64,000 bases of DNA from Nitrospirota bacterium (GTDB lineage Bacteria > Nitrospirota > UBA9217): contig CAWBNQ010000003.1 of assembly GCA_963790205.1 (NCBI GenBank), positions 480,001 to 544,000 on the forward strand, written 5' to 3'. The notes below the pieces were generated by a model, which saw only the letters and a program-made list of their open reading frames with translations, did not search any database and had not been told where the DNA came from. A program made the translations under genes and the position numbers. Of this stretch, positions 38,727 through 61,900 are shown piece after piece; position 1 is the stretch's first letter, and each line of letters begins with the position of its first letter.

Positions 38727-39272
38727 ATGCGTCAAGCCAAAAAAGAGATCAAAGACCGGGAGGTCGTCATCGGCTTGCTGAAGACCTGTGAGGTCGGCAG
38801 GCTCGGGACCATCGGCAGGGACGGCTATCCCATGGTCAAACCGCTCAATTTCGCTTATAAAGACGGGAAGATATACTTTCATTCGGCGCTGGAAGGCGAA
38901 AAGATCGACGATATCAAGCGGGACTGTCGCGTTTGCTTTGAAGCGGACCTGCCGATCGCGCTCGTGAAAAGCACGGGGAACCCCTGCAGGGCGGAGTATC
39001 TTTACCGGAGCGTTATCATCAAAGGCAGGGCCTATCCGGTCGAGGACCCATCAGAAAGGCTGTACGGTCTTGAGTTACTCATGGGGAAGTATCAGCCCGA
39101 AGGAGGATACGGCGAGTTTCCCGAAGAGAAGCTGAAGCTAACGTGCGTGGTGAGGATCGATATCGAGGAAATGACCGGCAAAGAGGACCTCGGGAAGGAG
39201 CAGTTGAAAGAAGCCGCTCTTAAGGCGCTTGAGGGTAAGGCGGCGCTGCCGATAGTTCTTGCGCGAGAATGA
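38727..39272 (+). CDS. Pyridoxamine 5'-phosphate oxidase-like flavin-binding protein (NimA-like)
   Basis: GRLG...YPMVKPLNF...IYFHSALEGEK...YRSVI...MTGK. Confidence 0.88.
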   Translation: MRQAKKEIKDREVVIGLLKTCEVGRLGTIGRDGYPMVKPLNFAYKDGKIYFHSALEGEKIDDIKRDCRVCFEADLPIALVKSTGNPCRAEYLYRSVIIKGRAYPVEDPSERLYGLELLMGKYQPEGGYGEFPEEKLKLTCVVRIDIEEMTGKEDLGKEQLKEAALKALEGKAALPIVLARE

Positions 39273-39384
39273 AAGCTGAAAGCGATCAGTCCGCATAGGG
39301 CCGCAGATTTAAAAACCAATAATTTCTGTCTGGCTTGATCTGTGAAATTTGCGTAATCTTCTATGTTAAAAAGCAAGTCTTTCT

Positions 39385-39625
39385 TTTGGCATAAACGCAT
39401 CTCTTTTATTAAGGAGCGATTTATAGCGAACGCAATCTTCAAACCCAATCTTCTATGAGCAGACAGTCTTCGTTGATGAAGAAAACGCTGCATTGCCTTG
39501 ATTAATTATGAAGGCGTGGGTTCGTAGTCTGTGGAAGCACAGACGGCATCTTTCGATCCGCTGTAGATTACGCAAGACGATACCCACGGTGAAACACGGG
39601 TTTAAGATCGGCTATAAATATCGGT
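39385..39625 (-). ncRNA. Predicted bridge/seek RNA region of IS110 copy 1 (exact ends unknown)
   Basis: Stem - internal loop - stem with a GAAA tetraloop at 39515-39588; loop strands match both target flanks. Confidence 0.8.
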
Positions 39626-39628
39626 TTT

Positions 39629-40699
39629 TTATTGAACAACCGCCGTAGTGTATTCTTGTTGGTTCTTTAAAACGTACCGGACGCGGTTTAACAGCTTCCG
39701 GGCGATCCGAACGATAGCTTTGGTCTTTGTCATGTGTTTGCACAGCTCATTGAACGCCATCATTAGGGCAGGGTCTTTTCGCACCGCCGTCCAAGCGCTT
39801 TCGATCAAGACGAAGCGAAGCTGGGCGTTCCGCCTGCCGGTCATGCCGGTTTTAAGGTCCTTTTCCCCGCTGGAATCGGTATCGGGGATAAGGCCAACGT
39901 AGCTGCAGAGTTTGTCGAGCGTCTTGAAACGATTGATGTCATACAGCTCCGTCAAGAGCATCATCGCGGTCAAGGTACTGATTCCCGGCACGGTCTTAAG
40001 TATCCGGACATTGTTCCGATAGTCGTCCGAATTGGCCAGGGCGCGGATCGCCCGGTTCATCTCGGCAATGATATGCCGAAGATGCTTAAGCTCGTCTAAG
40101 TGTATCTTGAGTGATAGGTTGCCGCTGGCCCGCTCCATTTGTACGGACTCGATCCAATTGATGAAGCGTTTGGACCAGTAACCGTTGATGAAATCGTCCG
40201 GTATGTCGATACCGTAAAAGCTCAGGATCGACTTGATCTGGTTCTTGCAGCGAGTTTGTTTCCTTACCATGCTATTTCGAGTACGAAGGAGGCTGCGGTC
40301 CTCGACTTTTGGTCGCGTAGGGACATAGATCCCTTCGATGTCGCCGTTTCTGAGGCTCCGGGCTAGCTTGCGGCAGTCCACCCGGTCGGTCTTGCCTGCG
40401 CGCTCTTTGTCTTTTGTGGGCACATCCGCCGGATTGACCACGAGACATTGTATGCCTCGCTCCTGAAGCCGGTCATGTATCCAGAAACCGGAGTAACCGG
40501 CCTCATAGACCGACTTATAGGCTGCACCCGGAAAATTGCGTTTGAGATAGTTTACCAGCACCCCGACCTCCGGAGGTTGTGAAAAGGTCTTATGCTCGAA
40601 CTGATCGGTAAAAATACTGATGCTCCAACTTTTCTTATGAATGTCCATACCGACATAAATTTGTTGACCAGTGAAATCGAGTCTGCTAACGTTATTCAT
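39629..40699 (-). CDS. IS110-family DEDD recombinase/transposase
   Basis: GMDIHK, YEAG and KTDRVD (DEDD), VPGIS, and DSSG with the conserved Ser; AGGAG RBS. Confidence 0.95.
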   Translation of the reverse strand: MNNVSRLDFTGQQIYVGMDIHKKSWSISIFTDQFEHKTFSQPPEVGVLVNYLKRNFPGAAYKSVYEAGYSGFWIHDRLQERGIQCLVVNPADVPTKDKERAGKTDRVDCRKLARSLRNGDIEGIYVPTRPKVEDRSLLRTRNSMVRKQTRCKNQIKSILSFYGIDIPDDFINGYWSKRFINWIESVQMERASGNLSLKIHLDELKHLRHIIAEMNRAIRALANSDDYRNNVRILKTVPGISTLTAMMLLTELYDINRFKTLDKLCSYVGLIPDTDSSGEKDLKTGMTGRRNAQLRFVLIESAWTAVRKDPALMMAFNELCKHMTKTKAIVRIARKLLNRVRYVLKNQQEYTTAVVQ

Positions 40700-40821
40700 G
40701 GCAAGTCTCCTTTTGGTGTATTTTGGTCCGGGATAGACCTAATATACCTTAAGTCAGACTTGCCTTTTTAATCATAAGGTCTGTGGATAAAAAAGACCTG
40801 AGGAGTTGCAGTCGTATGTTT

Positions 40822-41484
40822 TTACGATGGAGCACCTGATCTCAATTTTCTCGACAGCATGTCCGCGCACCTGAGCGGCTCCGGTATCCGGTATTTGCCA
40901 GTGCAGTTAAGCATGATGCGGATCGTGCTGTCGAGGTCGATCTTATGGCCCGGCGATACGAACAGGGGCCTGACACTGTCCTTTGTCCGCACTACCGCGC
41001 CGACGGTCCTGCTCTCATACGTGAGCTCGGACCAGCTTCCTTTTCGTCTGCCCGGTTCCTCGAATTCTCCGACAAGCCTTGTTTTTGCGCAACCGATCGC
41101 GGGGATGTTGAGCAGAATCCCGAGATGCGAAGCGATCCCGATCCCCCTCGGGTGCGCAATGCCCTGCCCGTCGACGAGAATGACATCGGGCGTTGTCGTC
41201 AGTTGCTTGACTGCCGCGATGATGGCAGGGCCTTCCCGGAATGAGAGAAAACCGGGAATGTAGGGGAATCTCAGTTTTTCAATGGCGGTCGCCTGTTCCA
41301 GAGGCGTGAGCTCGGGATAACGGTAGAGGCAGGCAGCTGCATACACCTGGTTTTCCGAGAACGCAGCGTCCACTCCTCCCACGTATCGCGGTTCACCTCT
41401 GAGAGGAACGATCTGCACCCGCTTTCTCAGAATTTCCCGCAGCTCTCGCGCCTGTTCTATCGAGATCGTTTTCGGCCATTTCAT
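40822..41484 (-). CDS. nfi: Endonuclease V
   Basis: PYIPGFLSFRE, DGQGIAHPR, GCAK, SPGH and YRIPEP motifs. Confidence 0.95.
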   Translation of the reverse strand: MKWPKTISIEQARELREILRKRVQIVPLRGEPRYVGGVDAAFSENQVYAAACLYRYPELTPLEQATAIEKLRFPYIPGFLSFREGPAIIAAVKQLTTTPDVILVDGQGIAHPRGIGIASHLGILLNIPAIGCAKTRLVGEFEEPGRRKGSWSELTYESRTVGAVVRTKDSVRPLFVSPGHKIDLDSTIRIMLNCTGKYRIPEPLRCADMLSRKLRSGAPS

Positions 41485-41534
41485 GCAAATACCACCCGTG
41501 CGCTTCAGATATAATTATACTATGTTTGATTCCA

Positions 41535-41648
41535 AAGACGCGAAACCAATCTGTCCGCAGATGTCGCAGATGGCCGCAGATTTTAAAACCAATAATTCCG
41601 GACGTTTTTTCTGTGAAATCTGCGTAATATGTGGATAAAAAAGACTTG
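41535..41648. repeat. Uninterrupted copy of the IS110-targeted palindromic repeat
   Basis: AACCAATCTGTCCGCAGAT...GGCCGCAGATTTTAAAACCAATAATT...CTGTGAAATCTGCGTAATATGTGGATAAAAAAGAC equals the joined flanks of IS copy 1. Confidence 0.85.
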
Positions 41649-41685
41649 AGTCGTGTTCATCCGTGGCTAAGAAAGGGGTGATTCC

Positions 41686-42150
41686 ATGTTTCTCTATCTC
41701 GTACAGCACGGTGAGGCGAAGAGGGAAGAGGAAGACCCTGCACGGGGGCTTACGGACAAAGGATCCAAGGAGGTTGCCAGGACCGCGATCTATGCGCAGA
41801 AGCTCGGTCTCAAGGTGAGTGTCATTCATCACAGCGGAAAGACCCGCGCCCTGCGGACCGCGCAGATATTGGCCGATTACCTCAAGCCGGGGAAGGACTT
41901 GTCCCCGGCAGAGGCCCTCGCGCCCCTGGATGATCCCGCCGTATGGGCCGGACGCATCGTTGGAATGAATGAGGATTTAATGCTCGTCGGACATCTCCCC
42001 TATATGGCAAAGCTCGCCGGCCTCCTTCTCTGCGGGGACAAGGAGAAGATGCCCATCGACTTCAAGATGGGAGGGATCGCCTGTCTCAGGAGGTTCGATG
42101 ATGGCCGCTGGGCCGTGGAGTGGATGATCGTGCCGGAGATGGCTGGATAA
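41686..42150 (+). CDS. sixA: Phosphohistidine phosphatase SixA
   Basis: LYLVQHGEA, HSGKTRA and LVGHLP motifs. Confidence 0.88.
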   Translation: MFLYLVQHGEAKREEEDPARGLTDKGSKEVARTAIYAQKLGLKVSVIHHSGKTRALRTAQILADYLKPGKDLSPAEALAPLDDPAVWAGRIVGMNEDLMLVGHLPYMAKLAGLLLCGDKEKMPIDFKMGGIACLRRFDDGRWAVEWMIVPEMAG

Positions 42151-42273
42151 GAACCTTTTCAGTCCCGCCCCGATGAGCAAGTCTTTTGCCTCTCTCTTGA
42201 CTTTGGTTGGGATCATTAGTAGCGGCTTTTTGCGCTGCTCTATCCGGACTGCGAAACCGCCTCACCCTGCCGG

Positions 42274-42918
42274 CTACTGCCCGGATTTTTTTTCGTTCTT
42301 TCTGATCAGCAGTCCTGTTGTCGAAACCATTACCCTTAATTCTTCCGCGCTGTTCGAGTTGATGAAGGTGGCGGACCCGTACTCGGCATCCAGCAGGGGA
42401 TTAAGGATCGCGAACCTGCGCCGGAGATCGAACATGTCCAGGGGCCTGTTGCTGGACAATGAATACACCGTATGGGCCTTTGTCGTTTCATCGCTCAGGA
42501 CCGCATAGCGGCCTGCCACGCGATCGAGCTCATAGGAGGTGTGCAGCCCGAATATGTTTGCCAGCGGTTTCCATTTGAGAATGTGGGCGTCAACATACAG
42601 CTGGTCACCGGCAAGAAGGAATACTTTTTCGCCGCCATCGGGCAGGGAAAACCAGGCCGTGAACTTCTGCTTCCCCGTCGGCACGATGTTCACGATCGCG
42701 GCAAGTTCTTCTCTGGTCAATGCGCGATACCCCTGAATGGCGATGCTTATGGTGCCGAACAGGGTGGACAGGGAGATCATCAGCAACGCGATCACGAAGA
42801 TCACGGCCGTGCCGAACAGCTTTCTCTTCTTCAGGGCTGCAATGGTCATGATAAGAAAGAGAAGGCCGAGAAGAGCAAAAAGTACAGCAATGATGTTCAG
42901 AGGGTTCGACAGCATCAT
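42274..42918 (-). CDS. Hypothetical membrane-anchored protein
   Basis: Two N-terminal TM segments and a soluble domain; AAGGA RBS. Confidence 0.75.
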   Translation of the reverse strand: MMLSNPLNIIAVLFALLGLLFLIMTIAALKKRKLFGTAVIFVIALLMISLSTLFGTISIAIQGYRALTREELAAIVNIVPTGKQKFTAWFSLPDGGEKVFLLAGDQLYVDAHILKWKPLANIFGLHTSYELDRVAGRYAVLSDETTKAHTVYSLSSNRPLDMFDLRRRFAILNPLLDAEYGSATFINSNSAEELRVMVSTTGLLIRKNEKKSGQ

Positions 42919-43030
42919 GTTTTTCCTTTCTCAGCGTACCTCTCGGCGTGGTTGGGATCATTGTATTGGGTTTCGCTCTGCTCTACCTACAGAACTGGTT
43001 ATATGAGTTATATTTCAATGGTTCTTATGT

Positions 43031-43255
43031 CTATTTCGATATAAATACTGACAAAAGAACAAATGAAAAAAGCAGTAGTCCAAAAATAAGAAGAACTACG
43101 AGCATAGTTCGATCTGGCTTTTTTACCATTTTCTTAAATTCTTTACGCTGCATCTGCGGGCGTTCAATCCCTGCATCTTTTAGTATGTCACCAGCATGAT
43201 CAACGCAAGGGACATTGGGATCATGATATGAGCCGTACAAGGGGCAGAAACTCAT
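43031..43255 (-). CDS. Small hypothetical protein, putative integron gene cassette
   Basis: AT-rich 74-aa ORF bracketed on the minus strand by ATTATATG (43294-43301) and CATATAAC (42998-43005). Confidence 0.5.
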   Translation of the reverse strand: MSFCPLYGSYHDPNVPCVDHAGDILKDAGIERPQMQRKEFKKMVKKPDRTMLVVLLIFGLLLFSFVLLSVFISK

Positions 43256-43293
43256 GATTGGACCACTCGAAAAATACTACTTTTTATTTATTG

Positions 43294-43349
43294 CATATAA
43301 TGTTAAGGCTTCTTTCTGAACGCTTTATTCAGAAAGAAGCTGGTTGGAC
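43294..43349 (-). other. attC-like site
   Basis: Minus strand: GTCCAAC (RYYYAAC), 13-bp perfect hairpin GCTTCTTTCTGAA/TTCAGAAAGAAGC, then ATTATAT (degenerate R'). Confidence 0.55.
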
Positions 43350-43607
43350 TAAGCCGTTGCGCGCCACGTCGCTATGGGATTTCAAATGATTTGTCAGCTT
43401 AAAACGAAGTCCGCGGAGACAGCATTGGCAGGGGCGTGAGACTTGTTCGGGTGAAAAGCGGCGATTCCGGACTGCTCCGCAAGCCCCTTTCGTAAAAGAC
43501 TATACAGGAAAAAGGGCTTTTGGGCAATAGGGTATCGTTGCGAAAGACGTGACTTTTTTCGGGGATGGATGTCGGAGTCGGGTTGTTCATTTCAGTGCTT
43601 GTGGTAA

Positions 43608-44802
43608 TCATATTCGCGGCGGTCCTTTGCAGCGCGCGGGCTGCATGATCTCGATTGTGCGCATTCTGCGTTCGCCGCAGGCAGGGCATTTGGCCAGCGT
43701 CAATGCCGGCGATCCTGAGCAAAGCTTCCTGCCACGTCTCAGTCTTCTGCTCCGCCTCGTTCTGATCAACGCAGGCCAGAAGCTCTCTGCATTGGTCGAG
43801 TTTCTTTCTGCGGCATCTGTTTCCCAACAGACCGTAATGCCTGATTTTGACAAACCGGTCGGGCAGGACATGAAGCAGGAACCGCCGGATGAACTCATCG
43901 GCGTCCACGGTCATGATCTTGCTTTTGTTGCTGTCCGCGTAGTCGCGCCACCGGAAGGAGATCTTGTCGTCCATCATCTTCACGAGCCGGTGATTGCTGA
44001 TCGCGATACGGTGGGTGTATCTGCCGAGATACTCAAGAACGCCTTTTGTTCCGTCGAACGGCGGCTTACAATAGACGACCCACTGCTTCTTGTACAAATC
44101 GGCGATGAAGGCCTTGAAAACTCCCGGCGACGCAAGATGGCTTACGACGCCGGGGTAGACAAGTTTGTTCTCGGCACGGAGTTTTTTCAGATAAGCGAGA
44201 AACTTCCCCCGAAAGAGTTTCGACATGACCTTGACGGGAAGGAAAAAGCCATTCTTGCATGATTTCCATTTCCGTCCGCCCTTGGACAATCCGCCGCCGG
44301 TGACGATGTTGTGGAGATGCGGATGATCCATAAGGTTCTGTCCCCAGGTGTGCAGGATCGAGATAAAACCGATTTCCGCGCCCAAGTGTTTCTGCGTATT
44401 CGAGAGTTCCGTCAGGGTTTCCGAAACGGCCTTGAACAGGATCCCGTAGAGGGCCTCCTGGTTCCGGAGCACAAGGGGATTGAGTTTATCGGGGATGGTA
44501 AAAACGACATGGAAGTAAGGAATGGGAAGCAGGTCTTCTTCCCGGGCCTCGATCCACTGCTCTTTTTTAAGGAACTGGCACTTGGGGCAATGCCGGTTTC
44601 TGCAGGAGTTGTACGAGATCACTTTTGTCCCGCAGTGCTCGCATTCGTCCACGTGACCGCCTTGGTCGGCGGTGCGGCAGGTCTCGATCGCCCGCATGGC
44701 GCGAAGACGATTCAAGGGCATGGGATGAGCGTTCCGGTAAAGAGGACCGTACCGGCGAAAGATGTCCGCGACTTCGATCTGTAGGCTATCTCGCGTGTAC
44801 AC
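43608..44802 (-). CDS. IS91-family (HUH, Y2) transposase; +1 frameshift near 43697
   Basis: SCRNRHCPKCQ zinc domain, LHTWG, HPHLH, YLGRY and IRHYG motifs; the typical C-terminal CPACG...KGPP lies in the alternative frame ending at 43608. Confidence 0.9.
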
Positions 44803-44823
44803 CGCGGGTGTCGCGTGTGCAGG

Positions 44824-45681
44824 CTACGAGGTTTGTGGAGGATTTAAGAAGGGGCCTAAGTCCAGAGGGCTCACGATCTTTGAGAGGTTCTTTTTGCTCA
44901 CGTGGAGATAAATAGTGGTCGTTCTCACCGACGCATGGCCGAGCAGAAGCTGAATATAGTGCAGATCAGCTCCCGACTCCAGCAGGTGTGTGGCGAAGCT
45001 ATGCCGAAGCGTGTGACAACTTGCCGGCTTCGTGATGCCGGCTTTTTTCTTCGCGCGTTTGAACGCCTCTTGGACGGTGCTAATGGAAATGTAGTTTTCA
45101 GGCTTTTCTCCCGGAAAGAGCCAATGCGTCGGTCTATATTCTTTCCAGTATTCCCGAAGCGCTTCCAGCGCTACCTGGGATAAAAGGGTATACCGGTCTT
45201 TTTTGCCTTTGCCCTGGTCCACGCGTATCAGCATACGGCTGCTGTCGATGTCCGTGATCTTGAGCCGGGCGGTCTCGCTCGCCCGGAGCCCTGCCGAGTA
45301 GGTCACCATCAGCATCACGCGCTGCTTCAGGCTGGGAGTGGCTTCGAACATGGCCTGTACCTCCTCCCGTTCGAGAACGATAGGAAGTGTCTTGGTCGTC
45401 TTCGGATAGGGAATCTTGTCCATCACCCAACCTTTGCCCAGCGTCGTTTCATAGAGGAACCGCAGCGCGCTGTAAGTTATCTTCAGGGTGGATAGCGATA
45501 CCTTCTTATCCCGGACGAGGTAAAGCAGATACGCTTTGACATCGCCGTCTTCCAAAAGGTCGGGCGGTTTTTTAAAATGGCGTTCCATATCGCGCGCCGC
45601 CCGGTGATACAATGATTGCGTCTTCGGGGCTAATCCTCGAAGCACCATGTCGCCCTGCATCTGTTCTTTGAACGTTTCCAT
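44824..45681 (-). CDS. Tyrosine recombinase / integrase
   Basis: YSAGLRASE, GKGKKDR, HTLRHSFATH, LLGH and TTIY; N-terminal SAM-like domain. Confidence 0.95.
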   Translation of the reverse strand: METFKEQMQGDMVLRGLAPKTQSLYHRAARDMERHFKKPPDLLEDGDVKAYLLYLVRDKKVSLSTLKITYSALRFLYETTLGKGWVMDKIPYPKTTKTLPIVLEREEVQAMFEATPSLKQRVMLMVTYSAGLRASETARLKITDIDSSRMLIRVDQGKGKKDRYTLLSQVALEALREYWKEYRPTHWLFPGEKPENYISISTVQEAFKRAKKKAGITKPASCHTLRHSFATHLLESGADLHYIQLLLGHASVRTTTIYLHVSKKNLSKIVSPLDLGPFLNPPQTS

Positions 45682-46158
45682 TGCATAATCTCCTTCCGTT
45701 GAATCGAAATTCCAACGGCATGACGCCGATGGTGATGCGAAAGAAGATTGTAGAACGGTCAGGATTATGAAGCAAGGAGCGAGACGAAGAAAATCTATCG
45801 AGATATGCGGGGATGAATTGTAGAGAGACTTATTGGAATGCGAATAACACCGCCGCGCAGCGGCTTAGTTCAACAAGGAATTGTGTAGCCCCCTCTATAA
45901 TTCTGGATTTCCGGAATTATAGAGTTTAGCAAAATACATGCCGTTTTGAGACCGCTGCATACATTTGCTTTTATTATGTTTCAAGTTCATCTCATACAAA
46001 AATTGTAAAATATCCGTGGTTTTTCCGCTAACAGGGGGAGTATATTTTATGCCTATATGCATGTCAAGGTAATAAAATAATTGACCATTCAGTGGAATTC
46101 GATAAAATATGCCGGAATTTGGGTGCTCTATGCGAAAGCGAGGTTTACTCACTATCCT

Positions 46159-46458
46159 ATGGAACCTATCCCGAAAGATCTTCTCGTCCAATTTGACGAC
46201 ATTCTCAAGCAGCGGAATGTTCCCCAAACACATGTTTAGGATGCGCTGTATGAAGCAGTCAGAAAAGCCAGGCTCACGAAACGCGCCATCCCTCACATCT
46301 TCCGTCATTGTTATGCAACGAATCTGCTTCAGACGGGCTATGACCTTTGCACGATCCAGACGCTCCTCGGCCACGCAGACATCAGGACGAAGATGATCTA
46401 CACTCACTGCGTACCGTCAAGGACGCTGAAAGAGATGAAGAGTCCCCTTGATTTTTGA
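46159..46458 (+). pseudogene. Internally deleted integron-integrase (IntI-like) remnant
   Basis: MEPIPKDLLVQFDDILKQRNVP joined in frame to [59 protein letters not shown]...KSPLDF; TAG at 46237. Confidence 0.75.
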
Positions 46459-46541
46459 TCCCGCGCGCGGTACTATCTAAAATCTCGTTAATCTTGTCCA
46501 GCCTTCTCTTTCCCGCTCGATGAGAATTCGGATCTTAAACG

Positions 46542-47675
46542 ATGAATAAAAAAACATCATCCGACGTTTCTATCGTAAAGTGCGCTGATTACGACCGCGA
46601 TCGGGTTCTGGGCGCGGTGCGCAGGGCCGTTGACCTGCTCGGAGGCATGGGCGCGTTCGTGAAGCCCGGCGACCGGGTGCTCATCAAGCCCAACCTGCTC
46701 AAGGCGGCCCCTCCCGACGACGCGGTCGTTACGCACCCCGAGGTCCTGCGCGCGGTCATACGCCTCGTGCGCGAGGCCGGGGCGAAGGCGCTGGTGGGCG
46801 ACAGCCCCGGCTTCGGAGAGCTCCGGCGCGTGTGCGAGAAATCGGGCGTCATGGACGTGATCGAGGAAGAAGGGGCCGCGCTCGCGGAGATGAACGAGGC
46901 CGTGCAGGTAAAGAACAGCGGGCAGTTCCATAGGTTCGAGGTCGCCCGGGCCGTGCTCGAAGCCGACGCAATCATCAACGTCCCGAAGTTCAAGACCCAC
47001 GGCATGATGACGCTCACGGGCGCGGTGAAGAACCTCTTCGGCTGTATTCCCGGCAGGAGAAAGGTGCAGTGGCATTTTAACGCGGGCGTCAACCGCGATG
47101 CTTTTGCGAGGATGCTCGTCGAGCTGTGCGCGCTGATCAAGCCTCGTTTGACCGTCATGGATGCAATCGTGGGCATGGAAGGGAACGGGCCGGGAAGCGG
47201 CGATCCGCGCGAGCTCGGCCTTGTGCTTGCCGGGGCGGACCCGGTCGCGATCGACGTGGTTTGCGGAGCGCTCGTCAGGGCCGAGCCTGCGCGTCTTCCT
47301 GTCATACGGGCCGCCGCCACGGCCGGGATCGGCGAGACCAGGCTCGGCCGGATACGGGTCCTTGGGGAGGCGTTGGGGGAGGTGGCCGTAAAAGGGTTCC
47401 GGCTGCCGCCCCAAGAGCATCCCGAGTGGCGCCTGCCCGAGTGGGCGCGCCGGCTCCTCAAGGACGCCCTGACCACGCGGCCGATGATCGACCCCGCGCG
47501 CTGTATCCGCTGCGGCATCTGCCAGGGCCACTGCCCGCAGGGCGCTATCGACGACGCGGGGAAAAAACTCGAGATCCGGCACCGCGACTGCATCCGCTGT
47601 TTCTGCTGCCAGGAGTTTTGTCCCCAGGGCGCGATAACCGTGGGCAGGGGATGGGCGCTGAAGATGGTGAGATGA
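46542..47675 (+). CDS. DUF362-domain protein with C-terminal 2x[4Fe-4S]
   Basis: VLIKPNLL, THPEV, PKFKTH and GAVKNLFG motifs; two CxxCxxCxxxCP motifs. Confidence 0.9.
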   Translation: MNKKTSSDVSIVKCADYDRDRVLGAVRRAVDLLGGMGAFVKPGDRVLIKPNLLKAAPPDDAVVTHPEVLRAVIRLVREAGAKALVGDSPGFGELRRVCEKSGVMDVIEEEGAALAEMNEAVQVKNSGQFHRFEVARAVLEADAIINVPKFKTHGMMTLTGAVKNLFGCIPGRRKVQWHFNAGVNRDAFARMLVELCALIKPRLTVMDAIVGMEGNGPGSGDPRELGLVLAGADPVAIDVVCGALVRAEPARLPVIRAAATAGIGETRLGRIRVLGEALGEVAVKGFRLPPQEHPEWRLPEWARRLLKDALTTRPMIDPARCIRCGICQGHCPQGAIDDAGKKLEIRHRDCIRCFCCQEFCPQGAITVGRGWALKMVR

Positions 47676-47681
47676 TTTGTT

Positions 47682-47760
47682 TCATTCCCGCGAAAGCCGG
47701 AATCCAGTTACGGGTAAAAAGCCAAAGACGCTGGATTCCCGATGGGGTCTTTCGGGAATG
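47682..47760. repeat. REP-like palindrome ATTCCCGCGAAAGCCGGAATCCAG...CTGGATTCCCG
   Basis: Same family as the core of the element at 57480-57547. Confidence 0.7.
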
Positions 47761-47791
47761 GCGACTTATATTATAATTCGATGGCAACCAA

Positions 47792-47885
47792 GCAGGTCTT
47801 TTTTTATCCACAGATTACGCAGATTTCACAGATGAAACAAAGCCGGAATTACCGGTCTTAAAATCTGCGGCCGTCTGCGTAATCT
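47792..47885. repeat. IS110-targeted repeat, reverse orientation, interrupted by IS copy 2 (continues at 49309-49325)
   Basis: Reverse complement of the 41535-41648 copy. Confidence 0.85.
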
Positions 47886-47910
47886 TCTATGTTAAAAAGC
47901 AAGTCTTTCT

Positions 47911-48151
47911 TTTGGCATAAACGCATCTCTTTTATTAAGGAGCGATTTATAGCGAACGCAATCTTCAAACCCAATCTTCTATGAGCAGACAGTCTTCGTT
48001 GATGAAGAAAACGCTGCATTGCCTTGATTAATTATGAAGGCGTGGGTTCGTAGTCTGTGGAAGCACAGACGGCATCTTTCGATCCGCTGTAGATTACGCA
48101 AGACGATACCCACGGTGAAACACGGGTTTAAGATCGGCTATAAATATCGGT
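47911..48151 (-). ncRNA. Predicted bridge/seek RNA region of IS110 copy 2
   Basis: Same sequence as in copy 1; guide segments at 48054-48061 and 48091-48100. Confidence 0.8.
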
Positions 48152-48154
48152 TTT

Positions 48155-49225
48155 TTATTGAACAACCGCCGTAGTGTATTCTTGTTGGTTCTTTAAAACG
48201 TACCGGACGCGGTTTAACAGCTTCCGGGCGATCCGAACGATAGCTTTGGTCTTTGTCATGTGTTTGCACAGCTCATTGAACGCCATCATTAGGGCAGGGT
48301 CTTTTCGCACCGCCGTCCAAGCGCTTTCGATCAAGACGAAGCGAAGCTGGGCGTTCCGCCTGCCGGTCATGCCGGTTTTAAGGTCCTTTTCCCCGCTGGA
48401 ATCGGTATCGGGGATAAGGCCAACGTAGCTGCAGAGTTTGTCGAGCGTCTTGAAACGATTGATGTCATACAGCTCCGTCAAGAGCATCATCGCGGTCAAG
48501 GTACTGATTCCCGGCACGGTCTTAAGTATCCGGACATTGTTCCGATAGTCGTCCGAATTGGCCAGGGCGCGGATCGCCCGGTTCATCTCGGCAATGATAT
48601 GCCGAAGATGCTTAAGCTCGTCTAAGTGTATCTTGAGTGATAGGTTGCCGCTGGCCCGCTCCATTTGTACGGACTCGATCCAATTGATGAAGCGTTTGGA
48701 CCAGTAACCGTTGATGAAATCGTCCGGTATGTCGATACCGTAAAAGCTCAGGATCGACTTGATCTGGTTCTTGCAGCGAGTTTGTTTCCTTACCATGCTA
48801 TTTCGAGTACGAAGGAGGCTGCGGTCCTCGACTTTTGGTCGCGTAGGGACATAGATCCCTTCGATGTCGCCGTTTCTGAGGCTCCGGGCTAGCTTGCGGC
48901 AGTCCACCCGGTCGGTCTTGCCTGCGCGCTCTTTGTCTTTTGTGGGCACATCCGCCGGATTGACCACGAGACATTGTATGCCTCGCTCCTGAAGCCGGTC
49001 ATGTATCCAGAAACCGGAGTAACCGGCCTCATAGACCGACTTATAGGCTGCACCCGGAAAATTGCGTTTGAGATAGTTTACCAGCACCCCGACCTCCGGA
49101 GGTTGTGAAAAGGTCTTATGCTCGAACTGATCGGTAAAAATACTGATGCTCCAACTTTTCTTATGAATGTCCATACCGACATAAATTTGTTGACCAGTGA
49201 AATCGAGTCTGCTAACGTTATTCAT
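48155..49225 (-). CDS. IS110-family DEDD recombinase/transposase
   Basis: Translation identical to 39629-40699. Confidence 0.95.
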   Translation of the reverse strand: MNNVSRLDFTGQQIYVGMDIHKKSWSISIFTDQFEHKTFSQPPEVGVLVNYLKRNFPGAAYKSVYEAGYSGFWIHDRLQERGIQCLVVNPADVPTKDKERAGKTDRVDCRKLARSLRNGDIEGIYVPTRPKVEDRSLLRTRNSMVRKQTRCKNQIKSILSFYGIDIPDDFINGYWSKRFINWIESVQMERASGNLSLKIHLDELKHLRHIIAEMNRAIRALANSDDYRNNVRILKTVPGISTLTAMMLLTELYDINRFKTLDKLCSYVGLIPDTDSSGEKDLKTGMTGRRNAQLRFVLIESAWTAVRKDPALMMAFNELCKHMTKTKAIVRIARKLLNRVRYVLKNQQEYTTAVVQ

Positions 49226-49352
49226 GGCAAGTCTCCTTTTGGTGTATTTTGGTCCGGGATAGACCTAATATACCTTAAGTCAGACTTGCCTTTTTAATCA
49301 TAAGGTCTGCGGATAGATTGGTTTATCTTGTCATCTGAAGGTCAGTCGAGGC

Positions 49353-50252
49353 TTAGTCAATTTCCTCGTCAGGCGGGCTCTCTTCGTCCTCATCAAAAAG
49401 TTCAGGCATCGTTCCTTCCTCTTCGAGTTCCCTCATTTCCTCTTCATTGATCTCGAAAACCTTCTCAGCCAGGCCCTGGTCCGGGTTCTTCCCCCGCTTC
49501 ACAAGCTCCCGGTGAACGAAGGGCTTTATCGTTATGGGCAACGAAGGGTCCGCATAGAGCTCCCTCACGTCAAGGAGTTTCATATTCTGAAGAAAAGGGA
49601 CGGACAGCGACAGGGGGGTGTGCGTGTTTCGTACGAGCGAGAAGCGTACCAGGGAGCGGGTGGACCAGTTCGTATGGCCGGCGATCATCATGATGGTCTC
49701 AACAGGGGTGTCCTCGCGGCTTATGATCTTGAAGAGATGGCCTTCCACCATGTTCGGATTATTGAGGCAGAGCCGCACTACTTCGGGGTCACGGTCCAGG
49801 AGCAATTTGAGCAGGACGTTGCCCGCGGCCTTCTTGGCAAGCGTTTTCTTGTTCCCCAGGGGCATGGTCGGGACCCGTTCGATGATAAGGGACTCGACCT
49901 TATGCCTGAAGACCAGGGGAATGAAACGGCTGCGTGTTATCTCCTCCAGGTCGAAGAGGCGGAGAAACCGCGCGATCGGAAGAGAGACGGACAGCGGCGC
50001 TTTTGGGTTCCTCGCGAGCGCGAGGCGGACGGGATAACTCTCGGACCAGCGCTTGTCCCTGGCGATGCTCTCGAGGATGTCGGCAGGGACGTTCTTTCTG
50101 TTCGCGACGATCAGGATGTCCTCTTCAATCAGGCGCCGGTTCCCGAGCAGCGCCCTGATGACCTTGGGGGACGGGTCCTGGACATAGTGGGCTATTTCCT
50201 CCGCGCTCGCCGCTGCCGCCAGCTCCATTCTTTTGTCCTCTGTGTCCGGCAC
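49353..50252 (-). CDS. Hypothetical helical-repeat protein with acidic tail
   Basis: Repeated L-x-x-N-P helical motifs; host-like codon usage. Confidence 0.75.
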   Translation of the reverse strand: MPDTEDKRMELAAAASAEEIAHYVQDPSPKVIRALLGNRRLIEEDILIVANRKNVPADILESIARDKRWSESYPVRLALARNPKAPLSVSLPIARFLRLFDLEEITRSRFIPLVFRHKVESLIIERVPTMPLGNKKTLAKKAAGNVLLKLLLDRDPEVVRLCLNNPNMVEGHLFKIISREDTPVETIMMIAGHTNWSTRSLVRFSLVRNTHTPLSLSVPFLQNMKLLDVRELYADPSLPITIKPFVHRELVKRGKNPDQGLAEKVFEINEEEMRELEEEGTMPELFDEDEESPPDEEID

Positions 50253-55748: not shown

Positions 55749-57152
55749 TTACTTGCCGAATTGAGCTTCAAGGGTGGCCGTAAAGGCAAAGGTGGAATTC
55801 CTCCTGCCGTGCACATCTTTCGGCCAGGTGACCTCGGGGGAAAGCTCAAAGAATAGCCAGGACCGGTAAAAATTCCGGCGATAGAGCGATCCGATCCGGT
55901 AATCTTGAACAACCCAATCCGGATGGCTCACTCCCCACATGCTGGTATCGTAAGAAATGGCGCTCTTGGGCGTCAATTGACTGAAAAGACTGATCCCGGT
56001 ATTCCAGGTTACGCCGGCCGTGCCTTCAGAATAGGTTGCATAATTGCTCCACCGCAGGAGCGTAAAGGTGGTGATTTTCTTTTCAAGATCAAGCTCTGAC
56101 GTTTCAGTGAAACCTTCAATATATCGATCGAGAGCGGTTTCGTTGAAGCGTAAGAGGTAAGCCTTGCCAAGGGTCTTCGTGTACTGGTACCGCAGCCGGG
56201 CAAAAGGATCGAGGGGCCAGTGGGCCTTGATGCCCATGTCATAGCTGACCAGTGAACGGAGCAAGGTTAGAAAATCCGCCCGCACGCCAACGGTGGGACT
56301 TCTGGCGCCCGTTGCGGGGTCGAGTCCCGGATCGACGGCCTGACCGGGCTGAGTAGTGAATTTATCGGCAGTGGACCTTGATTCGACGACTAATCTCGCT
56401 TTTTTCAGGAGCCTGTCCAGGTTGGGCAAACGATACCGGAAAGAGAAATCGCGGAGATACGTAAAGCCCTGCCCCTCGGTCCACCGGGCGGAATTTCTCC
56501 ATCTGACGAAAGCGCCGGGCCGGACGTCTTCCAGCGTATGTTCCTGACCGAAGAAGCTGTCAAACCACACCGCCGGCTCACAGAGGTTCTTATCCACGAA
56601 GCCATGGATCTGATCAAGCCATGTTCTTCCTTCCACTTCGGCGGTCGCGCACAGGTCTATTTTCGGCCCGGGTTTCTCCGGCAGGGTATGCGTCGGCGCG
56701 CTCACGAGGTTGCCGGCCGTCGGGGTAGGTTTTGTTACCGGCTGTTCTCCCGCTGGCGAAGGTGAAGGCGTAATCTGCCGGGTATTCGTCGGCGCGCTCA
56801 GGGGATTGCCGGCCGTCGGGATCGGTTTTGTTACCGGCTGTTCTCCCGCCGGCGAAGGTGGAGGCGTAATCTGCAGGGTGTTCGTTGGCGCGCTTACGGG
56901 CTTACTGTCTGTCGCAGCCGGATTTATGGACGGCTGTCCCGGGGTTTGAGCGGTTGCTCCCTGAAAACCGGCCCCGACAAGGATGAGAACGGCGCATACC
57001 GTGATCGTGAAACAGCCGAGACGTCCCGGAACAATCTTTCTGCACTGTTCGGCTTTGATATAACCCCCCTTGCCTCGGCATCGCACTCGAAAGTTCTCTG
57101 TTTTATAATAGCATAAACGATGAGGAGGATAAAGCGCGAATAGAGGGAGCAT
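55749..57152 (-). CDS. Exported protein with a Pro/Thr-rich linker and probable beta-barrel; start uncertain (likely downstream of 57152)
   Basis: Hydrophobic signal-like segment, repeats, WFDSFFG, LYRRNFYRSWLFFELSPE, terminal F. Confidence 0.7.
   Translation of the reverse strand: MLPLFALYPPHRLCYYKTENFRVRCRGKGGYIKAEQCRKIVPGRLGCFTITVCAVLILVGAGFQGATAQTPGQPSINPAATDSKPVSAPTNTLQITPPPSPAGEQPVTKPIPTAGNPLSAPTNTRQITPSPSPAGEQPVTKPTPTAGNLVSAPTHTLPEKPGPKIDLCATAEVEGRTWLDQIHGFVDKNLCEPAVWFDSFFGQEHTLEDVRPGAFVRWRNSARWTEGQGFTYLRDFSFRYRLPNLDRLLKKARLVVESRSTADKFTTQPGQAVDPGLDPATGARSPTVGVRADFLTLLRSLVSYDMGIKAHWPLDPFARLRYQYTKTLGKAYLLRFNETALDRYIEGFTETSELDLEKKITTFTLLRWSNYATYSEGTAGVTWNTGISLFSQLTPKSAISYDTSMWGVSHPDWVVQDYRIGSLYRRNFYRSWLFFELSPEVTWPKDVHGRRNSTFAFTATLEAQFGK
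56691..56895 (-). repeat. Intragenic 96-bp (32-aa) tandem repeat, about 2.1 units
   Basis: CGTCGGCGCGCT recurs at 56691 and 56787, and with one mismatch at 56883; SAPTNTxQITPxPSPAGEQPVTKPxPTAGN occurs twice. Confidence 0.9.
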
Positions 57153-58935: not shown

Positions 58936-61900
58936 TTATGGGGCAGTAAAGAGCGGCGCCTCGATAGTGGCGCTGTTGCCGTTCAGATCATTAACGCCGA
59001 TTTGCCACTGATACGTCACCCCGGTCGAAAGGGCCGACTGCGAGGCGCTCCCGTCCACATTGTACAAGACCGAGGTCGTCGTCAGGGTCCCATTCTGCGG
59101 ATAGTTCCACACAAAGCCCCCGTTGTTCTGGCCCACGAAAATATTATAGGAGTTGAAATTCGTGGGCAACGGGCTCGGCGCCGTCCAGGTGAACGTGGGC
59201 GTGTCGACGTTCGTGGCGTTCAAGTTTGTCGCAAAGTTGTCGAGCACGGCGGTCACTGTCGCGTTCAGGGTTTCTGATGTCCCGTCCGAGTAGGCGACTG
59301 CGAAGGCATAGGAATCACCCACCGTCGGCCTGACCGAGCCGAGGTTGATATAGAGATAGCCCTGCTGCCCGGCCTCCAGATCCAGGGGGACCGGGGTATT
59401 CGGCCCTGAGGTGAGCGTTGCCGCTACCGGCAGCTTCACATTGCCGGAAACCTGAATTTGCTGCAAGCTGTAAGATTCATTGCTGTTGTAGTCCTTGAAG
59501 TGGCTGGTGCTTACATTGGCGAATGCGTTTGCGCCCGAGAGCGTTTGGTTCACTCCCGATAAATTGCCGCTTACGGTCACTGAACTATTATTGCCGTTCG
59601 TATTGCCGATGTCCCCGAGGTCTATCGCGCCGTCCCCGTTCATATCGATGACGGCAATGGGCGTGTAGGTGCCGTTCGGCACGCCCGCGATGCTGTATGA
59701 CGCCGGGCTGGTTGACGGAAGAGTAACAGGCGTGAAGAATATGTGTTCTGTGCCGTTTGTCTTGCTGTCGAGGATCACGTACATTGTCTTTCCTGTGGTA
59801 AGCGTGGACGACGGGAACGAGATCGTGCCTGAAACAGTGTTCAGGCCCGTTGTCGCGTTTATGGTCGTCGAAGTCGGTGAAGACAATACGCTTTCCTGTC
59901 CATTCAGCGACGCAGTAACCGCAAAGTTATACGTTGAAGCGTTCGTAAGCCCGGACACGAATACATGACCGCTGTTATCGCTGGTTGCCGGGACCGTCAA
60001 TTTGGAGCTTGATTTGCTGACCGTGCCGGTTGCGTAGTAGATGTTGTAATGGTCGGAGAACTGATTGCCGTTGGTGTCCACAGCCGGTTTCCATTTGATA
60101 AGCGCGGTGTTGCTGCCGCGGCCTGTCACTTTTACGCTCTGGGGCGCGGGAAGCGGGGATGTCGGCGTGGGATCGGAAATCACGATGTCCGGGCTTATCA
60201 CGTCCGCATTCGTAACGCTGAAGCCGGCTGTACCGCCCAGGGGAGACGCTGCGTTTATCACCCCGGTCTCCGGGCTGCTCGTGTCCATCCAGGCCGCGAG
60301 CGAGTAATCACCCGGAGGAACGCCGCGGATGGTAAACGTCGGCGATGAAGCGAGGTCCGGGATGCTCGTACCCAGACCGGTTGTTCCGCCGCCGTTCATT
60401 TGCAGGACCACATAGACCCTTCCCGTGGAGCCGGACGAAGAGCTCACAATCCCCGAGACGGTGTAGAAGACGTTGGCGCTGAAATTCTCGTTTATGCCTC
60501 CGTTGTTCACGGTCAGCAATATGCTCGCGGGATAGAACGCGGATTCCGCTCCCGCAAGGCTCGGGGTGAGCGTGTAGTTTCCATTCGGGATATTGGAGAT
60601 GGTGTAATTCCCGCTTACGTCCGTCATTGCGGTCACGGTCGGCGACGTGTCGAGCGACAGGAGCACGCCCGGGAGCCAGGTGCTGCCGCCGAAGGTGTTG
60701 AGATACACCGTCCCGGAAATGTTGTAGCCGGTCCCGGTGGCGGCAATGAAGTTGACGCCCGTGATGTCGGCGCTGAGGAACTGCGCGCTGGGCGAAGAGA
60801 AAGTGTAGCCCGTCTCGGAGGCGGTTATGGTATAGGTCTGCCCGCTCAGCAGGTTCGGGATCGCGTAATTGCCGTTTGCGTCGGTCGTTGTGATGCCTCC
60901 GGCGCCGCCGGTCGCCGTTACGGTGACGCCCGGGAAGCCGATGCCGTTGAAGGTCACTTGTCCCGAGATGCCGTACGTCGGGAGAGGCGAGCCCGTGAAG
61001 TTGTTGCCAATAGAGTCCGCACCGGAAATAGTGACCGGTATGCTCGTGGGGCTGAATGTGTAGGTTGCAAGAGACGCTACGACCGAATACGTTCCGTCCG
61101 CGATATTGGAGAAACTATACTGACCGCCGTTGGTCGTCGTCGTGCTGGTTACAAGGTCGCCGCTTAAATTCACCGTGACCCCATCCGCGATTGCGCCGCT
61201 CACGGTGCCTGAGATGTGGTATGTCGGGATGACCGATGCAGTGAAATCAAGGGCCGCAGGGTCCGTGCTCGTTATCGTGACGGGCTGACTTGTTCCCGTG
61301 CTGAAGGTGTACCCGTACTTCGACGGAGTGACGGTGTACGATCCCGGAGAGAGGTTCGTGAAGCTGTAGTGGCCTCCGTTGGTCGTCGTGGTGCTGGTCA
61401 CAAGGTCTCCGCTCAAATTCATCGTGACCCCGTCGGCGATCGCGCCGCCCACCGTGCCGGAGAGGGTGAAGATCGAACTTCCCGGCGTATAGAACGGCGC
61501 CTCCAGGGTGGCGGTGTTGTTGTTCGCATCGGCCACGCTGACCATCCAGCCGTACGCTGTCCCGCCCGCAAGGGACGCAGGATTGGCTTTCCCGTCCGTA
61601 TTGTATGTGACCGTGGTCTGCGAGAACACGCCGTCTTGCGGATACTCCCAGACCGTGCCGCCCATATCCTGGAACACCGAGAGGGAATAGGCGGCATTTG
61701 CAGGCGGCGAAACCGGCGCCGTCCAACTGAAGGTCGGCGTGCCGTCGTTCGGCACGGGTGTGACCGTAAGCGTTTGAGCGAAGCTGTCGAGCACCGCGGT
61801 GACCGCCGAGGCAAGAGTTTCCGAAGATGCGTCGGAATAGGAGACCGAGAAACTATAGTTGTCTCCCGGAGAGGGCCTGTCCGTACCGAAGTCGATAAAG

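Follow-up and report, generated by a model that had tools for sequence, protein, structure and literature searches.

A two-gene IS91-family element at the crossover base of an integron attI site, with ends that may be integrated as a folded single strand

How does an element that encodes both an HUH transposase and a tyrosine recombinase come to stand exactly where an integron receives its first cassette? The question is raised by a 64,000-nucleotide stretch of DNA from a Nitrospirota bacterium (contig CAWBNQ010000003.1, positions 480,001 to 544,000; the whole stretch is called the window below), in which an element on the minus strand adjoins the remnant of an integron integrase gene, intI. 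A sequence-only reading of the window had proposed a self-mobilizing cassette whose joined ends fold into an attC-like substrate for its own recombinase. The analysis presented here finds a two-gene IS91-family element inserted at the crossover base of an integron attI site. With moderate confidence, and on sequence comparisons, it favours a mechanism in which the HUH enzyme would supply a bottom-strand circle that the element's own recombinase would integrate by one strand exchange at R|TT, where R is a purine and the bar marks the crossover.

The boundaries of the element follow from comparison of its copies. The genome examined (4.34 Mb in 14 contigs) contains seven full copies that differ among themselves at only two positions and whose flanks part exactly at 43301 and 45873, so that the whole element spans 43301-45873 on the minus strand, 2573 bp in the window and 2572 bp in the other six copies. 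The limits first proposed, 43343..45874, do not hold: a further 42 bp past the left repeat, hairpin included, are common to all seven copies, which places the end at 43301 rather than 43343, and base 45874, G in the window, is A in one copy and is therefore assigned to the target. Annotations that stop at the inverted repeat miss the hairpin. The ends are also supported by a motif-free comparison of six multi-copy groups, and seven copies in a single genome fixed those of a sister clade, clade B, independently of motifs. In public run X1 a contig connects 45871 to 43299, two bases being ambiguous (the run is possibly related to the window's own source and is taken neither as habitat nor as fully independent), and head-to-tail junctions also occur in the homologous loci L050, L054 and L142, the last a circular contig with a unit length of 2580. 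The head-to-tail junction is present as DNA. Locus L117, read at first as a further head-to-tail arrangement, proved to hold two separate copies.

Both genes named by the sequence-only reading are borne out. The recombinase gene (44824..45681, minus strand) encodes 285 amino acids with matches to PF00589 and PF13495, and belongs to an integron-like subgroup of tyrosine recombinases; its catalytic residues R133, K158, H223, R226, H249 and Y258 are present and are invariant in five aligned proteins, and its best match in the Protein Data Bank is IntI4 (2a3v). It is not an IntI in the strict sense: alignment to the host IntI shows a gap of ~41 residues where the IntI-specific insert containing the I2 helix would lie, and its score against the integron integrase model TIGR02249, 204.6 bits, falls under that model's cutoff of 265. 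Recombinases of IS91 elements have been placed in an integron-like subgroup as the closest homologues of IntI, without the insert (Smyshlyaev et al., bioRxiv 542381). The transposase gene (43608..44802, minus strand) encodes an IS91-family HUH-Y2 enzyme, 397 amino acids long in intact copies, with matches to PF04986 and PF14319, a score of 457 bits against NF033538 (cutoff 125), and the motifs HPHLH (HUH) and YLGRY (two tyrosines). An extra base near 43697 frameshifts the transposase in the window copy, where the open reading frame continues to 43399 (467 amino acids); this base is missing from the other six copies and from the contigs of all four public runs examined, and the frameshift is a private mutation or an assembly error.

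The two genes travel together. The recombinase gene lies directly upstream of the transposase gene on the same strand in the window and directly upstream in 76 of 78 transposase loci. Of 64 relatives, 61 have kept both the HUH motif and the two-tyrosine motif intact. Ratios of nonsynonymous to synonymous substitution, from the five of eight pairs that aligned without gaps, are about 0.05-0.15 for the recombinase and about 0.09-0.15 for the transposase (the recombinases of L041, L047 and L059 were unusable, as indels broke the ungapped register), values that indicate purifying selection on both genes. In a set of metagenome loci the transposase is missing from 12 of the 52 with room for it, all at an identity of 66% or less.

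The site of insertion in the window has two halves, recognized from the flanks and from element-free homologues. The left half, 45874..45882 on the minus strand, is an attI core consisting of AA and a 7-nt spacer ending in G; the right half is TT at 43299..43300 (minus strand), and TT-purine follows the element in all seven copies. The five distinct left flanks in the genome all end in AA-N6-R and the seven right flanks all start with TT-R; AA at positions -9/-8 is thus found in 5/5 of the genome's own left flanks, as against 7.3% of its R-TT-R sites. Insertion at R|TT is oriented in all seven copies and neither duplicates nor removes target bases. The left junction always keeps the spacer of the target and the right junction the spacer of the element, a pattern like that of single-strand exchange.

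Three of the seven copies, that of the window included, occupy homologous attI platforms. Element-free homologues of this attI in other genomes (L192, L196 and L206) carry ordinary cassettes starting from the same base, and two of them have a classical attC downstream. What follows attI in L206 is similar to what follows the C1 copy, one homologue having behind its attI a relative of the cassette that lies next to that copy. The C6 copy heads a true cassette array; at the window locus the intI gene is internally deleted and no attC follows the element. The sequence-only reading was right in placing GTTGAAC at a distance of 285 bp from the point where the divergent intI remnant begins (46159). 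Transposition of the three attI copies as one block is less likely, because their flanks, identical over 60 bp, diverge over 140 bp (130/142, 115/143 and 117/143 matches) while the elements are 99.9% identical.

The ends of the element suggest how such a site might be entered. The arms at 43343-43363 and 45854-45874 are inverted copies of each other that agree at 19 of their 21 positions; inverted pairs of this quality within 3 kb occur twice in the window and not at all in five block-shuffled windows. They had been described as 21-bp terminal repeats, but only one arm is terminal. The terminal arm (45854..45873, minus strand) begins the element with TTGAAC and overlaps a small conserved palindrome at 45852-45864, and the subterminal arm (43343..43363, minus strand) ends in an R''-like triplet, AAC (43343-43345). 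The order outward from the transposase gene is an origin-like motif, the subterminal arm with its triplet, 2 nt, a stem, 7 nt, and the end. The conserved TTGAAAYCCCATAG motif (43372..43386, minus strand), about 70 bp inside the 3' end, is a candidate rolling-circle origin that may resemble the oriIS consensus of IS91 and ISCR elements; of 60 parsed ends, 46 have its core, CCATAR, with 15-26 nt separating it from the triplet. The inner hairpin (43308..43340, minus strand) has a 13-bp stem and a 7-nt loop in the window, with folding z scores of -3.3 and -3.8 for the two strands, and is followed by a 7-nt spacer (43301..43307, minus strand) from the stem to the 3' end, equal in length to the spacer of the target. 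In relatives the hairpin has an 11-bp core stem with 9-87 nt between its arms. The covariation alignment comprised the window and 31 loci with short loops, giving 31 distinct sequences. Both partners have changed in 8 of 11 stem pairs and 94.6% of cells are paired, values that far exceed those of the shuffled and slid controls, although relatedness inflates such structure counts. When the two ends are joined computationally, the bottom strand is predicted to fold, at about -32 kcal/mol, into a hairpin in which an outer stem of ~20 bp is separated from the inner stem by a 2x6 loop.

This hairpin had been read as an attC-like structure immediately following an element that ends in GTCCAAC. A hairpin does lie there, but inside the element, and it is not a classical attC. 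Its assignment to a neighbouring host attC was rejected, as it lies inside all seven copies. A covariance model trained on 15 attC sites of the host failed to detect the element hairpin, even with filters off and E values up to 10; the model finds 23 sites in 71 sources, none of them on this genome's element hairpins and none in the window, and both it and the heuristic attC finder used below see only the attC type of this host. A scan of 39000-49500 against Rfam gave no matches. The absence of a hit to the host model, the lopsided 2x6 internal loop and the perfect inner stem set the fold apart from classical attC, which has R'', L'', L' and R' and extrahelical bases.

The end layout is widely shared, as the proposal of joined, folded ends had required. 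Among 78 loci, 5' ends were parsed at 57 and 3' ends at 60 (L048, with an interrupted hairpin, was left out of the counts, and the end was moved one base by hand in L076, L092, L096, L101, L105 and L111). The inverted repeats are conserved in relatives, and the layout recurs in ISAzo26 (L119) and in Rhizobium members, whose ends, presumably, also resemble those seen in RIT (recombinase-in-trio) elements. In a later-fetched check set of 21 metagenome loci with recombinase identity of at least 70%, all 19 parsable starts read TTG(A/G)AC and all 13 parsable ends have the triplet AAY, the stem, 7 nt and TT; in the metagenome set as a whole most of the distant ends remained unparsed. Two records titled as archaea, L051 and L101 (Bathyarchaeota, Nitrososphaerales), have the identical layout, and the 3' ends of the Clostridium members are ambiguous.

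In all 40 elements for which both ends could be parsed, the subterminal triplet and the opening bases go together: AAY accompanies a TT start (22/22) and TTC an NA start (18/18), a correspondence that calls for pairing of the two ends. This bears on the possibility that the recombinase acts on a double-stranded circle with unmatched spacers, in the strand-biased manner of Tn916 or of SEs (integrative elements that circularize with a strand bias), and that the hairpins serve the HUH enzyme only, as origin and terminator. A recombinase without I2 would suit such a route, as would a 7-nt spacer, which can be read on double-stranded DNA, and in SEs tyrosine recombinases form circles in a strand-biased way with no attC-like fold (PMC9345347). 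A double-stranded circle does not, however, explain the tracking of the first bases by the triplet, nor the sequence of the left arm beside the 7-nt spacer, which is GC and not the AA of targets, and this account is considered distinctly unlikely.

Comparison of insertion sites in relatives separates elements of the TT type from those of the NA type, which make up clade B. Right flanks follow the triplet type, with TT in 24 of 26 elements and NA in 20 of 23, and 31 of the 33 right flanks classed as TT-type begin with TT. AA at -9/-8 is found in 13 of 28 TT-type left flanks and, judged by eye, in 8 of 14 distinct held-out flanks; the base before the TT crossover is A in 8 of 28 TT-type flanks. 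Dyad symmetry across the target, scored without L050 and L054, is strongest with a spacer of 7 for sites of the NA type (50 of 92 arm positions) and with spacers of 6-7 for those of the TT type (45 and 46 of 92); other spacers give 15-40. At three loci, L047, L129 and L139, the element stands in cassette orientation directly against the G|TT of a classical attC. In the 3 kb downstream a classical attC was found for 5 of 25 TT-type sites, for 0 of 20 NA-type sites and for 2 of 150 random windows (the heuristic finder is strict and missed the degenerate site of L047, which the covariance model found), and a divergent intI lies upstream of 7 of 37 TT-type and 0 of 25 NA-type sites. The targeting of att sites put forward in the sequence-only reading thus stands for entry at the integron crossover base, but most relatives occupy sites with no detectable integron nearby, and targeting appears wider than attC and attI. 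Six loci, L122 and L123 (Rhizobium plasmids), L121 (a Clostridium plasmid), L110, L116 and L117, sit inside palindromic sites, some with a 6-nt spacer; in the relatives on Rhizobium and Clostridium plasmids the base preceding TT is C or T. Core sites used by other tyrosine recombinases may be among the family's targets.

These sites also bear on the idea that the element is a cassette mimic integrated by the host IntI, its own recombinase acting only in excision or in an accessory capacity. The three own copies at attI and the three loci joined to a classical attC in cassette orientation are what such a mimic would give; two of the genome's three other intI genes are split into two frames and one has an unbroken frame of 463 amino acids, and IntI1 is reported to use GWT secondary sites (bioRxiv 2022.09.11.507474). 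Against this, the hairpin fails the host attC model, clade B enters G|NA with no site near an attC or an intI (0/20 and 0/25), and the plasmid relatives lie at palindromes whose base before TT is C or T. Integration by the host IntI is accordingly held to be very unlikely.

The sister clade provides a change of specificity. Clade B appears, from its ends and flanks, to have switched once to G|NA, altering both arms of the target and its own pairing triplet; on the left arm T at -9 is found in 29 of 29 NA-type flanks as against 9 of 28 TT-type flanks. The split between clades A and B on the recombinase tree has a support of 99 and is a single event (the tree is a quick version, uninformative on IntI ancestry, and only this split is used). 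A concerted change of both arms is what is expected from a symmetric recombinase pair.

It is less readily expected from classical IS91 chemistry, in which the HUH transposase would cut and join both ends and the target (the bottom strand having YAA at the terminus as well as at the origin end), the recombinase merely steering the element to core sites or resolving dimers. That account has several observations on its side: the TT(R) following the 3' end is identical to the bases with which the element opens, much as in the IS91 tetranucleotide rule (PMC13181058), target duplication is absent, the HUH and two-tyrosine motifs are retained almost throughout the relatives, and end hairpins are general for HUH transposons (PMC10288648). 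However, tetranucleotide targets are one-sided, whereas the targets here are two-armed about a 6-7-nt spacer with both arms changed in clade B; the origin-like motif lies ~70 bp inside the end, and the recombinase has kept its six catalytic residues. Classical IS91 chemistry is for these reasons considered unlikely.

In the favoured mechanism, integration of a folded strand by the element's own recombinase, the HUH transposase would make a single-stranded circle of the bottom strand, nicking either at the internal origin-like motif or at the ends, a step that is among the weaker ones. The joined bottom strand would fold, its two repeat arms forming the outer stem of ~20 bp, followed by the lopsided 2x6 loop and the inner stem, and this folded junction would be bound by the recombinase as one recombination site. 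Its partner would be an AA-N7-TT core in double-stranded form, whether attI, attC or a sequence resembling them; one strand only would be exchanged, and replication would resolve the product. A second exchange would be blocked, again a weaker step, by the mismatched inner arm and the bulged spacer, in place of the I2 helix and extrahelical bases of integrons. Precedents exist on both sides: the bottom-strand circle is the functional substrate of IS91 (PMC13181058), and attC recombines as a folded bottom strand by one exchange, with I2 blocking the second (PMC4792948). The weakest steps are the inclusion of the hairpin in the circle if the nick is internal and the avoidance of a second exchange by an enzyme without I2. 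The core of the original proposal is thereby retained, as folding, conserved ends and entry at att sites are all consistent with the sequence comparisons; what changes is that the hairpin is the element's own, that the fold is not a classical attC and that targeting is wider.

Several points weigh against integration of a folded strand. The recombinase lacks I2, which is reported to be necessary for cassette capture and to confer single-strand recombination (PMC7790495). The crossover base in the window copy is a T.G wobble and not the C-G pair of integrons, and the natural L054 junction, in which part of the left arm is cut off, did not take up the predicted fold (z -0.9). AA at -9/-8 is missing from 15 of 28 TT-type flanks, and the TT common to both ends fits classical IS91 logic equally well. 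The clade B switch counts once, and since the transposase is co-inherited the switch names neither enzyme. Structure counts are inflated by relatedness among the aligned ends, and the junction contigs are compatible with a free circle or a tandem dimer, in single or double strands.

The integron platform upstream of the attI that holds the window copy (45883..46158) has homologous counterparts in other genomes. It contains a Pc-like promoter match at 46067-46039 that points at attI (11/12, a consensus match only) and a strong hairpin at 45893-45924, just upstream of attI, that is kept in element-free homologues. Beyond it the intI remnant (46159..46458, plus strand) consists of 26 N-terminal codons, a stop and 72 C-terminal codons, the middle being deleted, and matches TIGR02249 positions 245-313. 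Its 5' 125 bp are 100% identical to the C6 intI and its 3' part only 83%; the 3' part is only 72-83% like the genome's three other intI genes, and the remnant looks chimeric. Contigs from runs X3 and X4, which may come from other organisms, join 45877 to 46349, placing a related element start beside sequence like the 3' part of intI (the short side is 29 letters), and suggest that the related element was inserted within an intI gene or next to one. Other remnants of 3' ends, again from related elements, lie at C1 331877-332217 and C5 215456-215731, the former ~140 bp upstream of an attI occupied by a full copy. At L007 7002, minus strand (C3 near 667000), the 3' end of a truncated relative gives way to 12 bases resembling the element start, after which comes a cassette array with classical attC; the arrangement may be the scar of a tandem insertion or a cassette derived from an element start.

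Other repeats surround the locus. Two IS110-family elements in the same orientation, 99.9% identical, at approximately 39350-40785 and 47876-49315, enclose an 8.5-kb region with the element and the intI remnant; the genome has about six full and two partial copies of this IS110-family element. Short intergenic repeats of two kinds, similar in look to repetitive extragenic palindromes, occur at 42206-42250 and 42950-42995, and at 39292-39359, 41543-41642 and 47800-47885. Repeats with periods of ~2540 and 249 bp, probably paralogous repeat-domain proteins, and a 2 x 96-bp tandem repeat occupy 59045-63991 and 56681-56872.

The gene pair itself is already catalogued, in ISAzo26. Full-text searches, which did not cover ISfinder, TnPedia or most subscription journals, found no literature on the ends, targets or mechanism of the ISAzo26-like subgroup, and the accessible parts of PMC3469429 and PMC5737581 hold nothing on this subgroup. 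The transposase matches 484 plasmid records, and relatives span many phyla; such elements can occupy the expressed first slot of integrons. If the element's own recombinase integrates a folded single strand, rolling-circle insertion sequences and integrons, which are treated separately, become joined, and the elements would offer an experimental handle on the question of how I2 and attC were selected before each other existed (PMC4792948), for which intermediates are said to be lacking (PMC7790495). A broader and more tentative reading, rather doubtful at present, is that these are autonomous cassettes in which an HUH enzyme would supply the strand and an I2-less sister of IntI would recombine a folded junction of attC-like form, its specificity being open to re-coding from G|TT to G|NA. 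They would then be living models, and possibly descendants, of the stage at which integrons had yet to separate recombinase from cassette. Were this true, folded-strand integration would have come first, resolving the chicken-and-egg problem of I2 and attC.

Among known systems the closest is ISAzo26 of Aromatoleum aromaticum EbN1, which has the identical order of two genes, a transposase 50% identical, and ends built as in the window element, with the start TTGGAC, an origin-like motif, the triplet AAC, a stem, 7 nt and TT. The window element is a member of an ISAzo26-like subgroup and shows no difference in kind. ISShvi3 and ISWz1 are named in papers as IS91-family elements with an upstream tyrosine recombinase, and ISShvi3 has been described beside an attC (PMC9229058). 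Canonical IS91, IS801, IS1294 and IS1294b share with the window element an HUH-Y2 transposase (NF033538), the absence of target duplication, a fixed orientation and, probably, circles that bear the junction. In the canonical group inverted repeats are lacking and the tetranucleotide target, which is CTTG, GTTC or GTCC, is one-sided (PMC13181058). The window element differs in its 21-bp repeat pair, its two-armed target, its recombinase gene and the internal position of its origin-like motif. Its ends are not dissimilar in the canonical way, as the arms match at 19/21, and are still asymmetric, one arm being subterminal; its 3' end abuts TT-purine or, in relatives, NA rather than a tetranucleotide.

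The proposed mechanism also has counterparts outside the IS91 family. CTXphi integrates a folded strand through XerC, which is without I2, and CTXphi and other integrative mobile elements exploiting Xer recombination (IMEXs) resemble it in combining a folded single-stranded circle, an I2-less tyrosine recombinase and one strand exchange (PMC7790495). IMEXs are phage-like, borrow the host XerCD and use dif, whereas the window element has its own recombinase and many core sites, with seven copies at five different left flanks (no search for dif was made). SEs copy out via a single-strand circle with tyrosine recombinases, similar to the proposed route, but have neither an HUH enzyme nor attC-like repeats (PMC9345347). 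Integron cassettes share with the element the start TT-R-R, a terminal hairpin with an RYYYAAC-like box that pairs with the element start, the R|TT crossover and the first attI position. They differ from it in that the element has its own enzymes, a pairing of its ends of ~20 bp rather than 7, a perfect inner stem and a 2x6 loop, fails the host attC model, has a recombinase without I2 and includes a clade that uses G|NA. The IS1111-attC group and group IIC-attC introns exploit integron recombination sites with different enzymes and interrupt attC. Unlike these, the window element inserts at the crossover base and carries a hairpin of its own.

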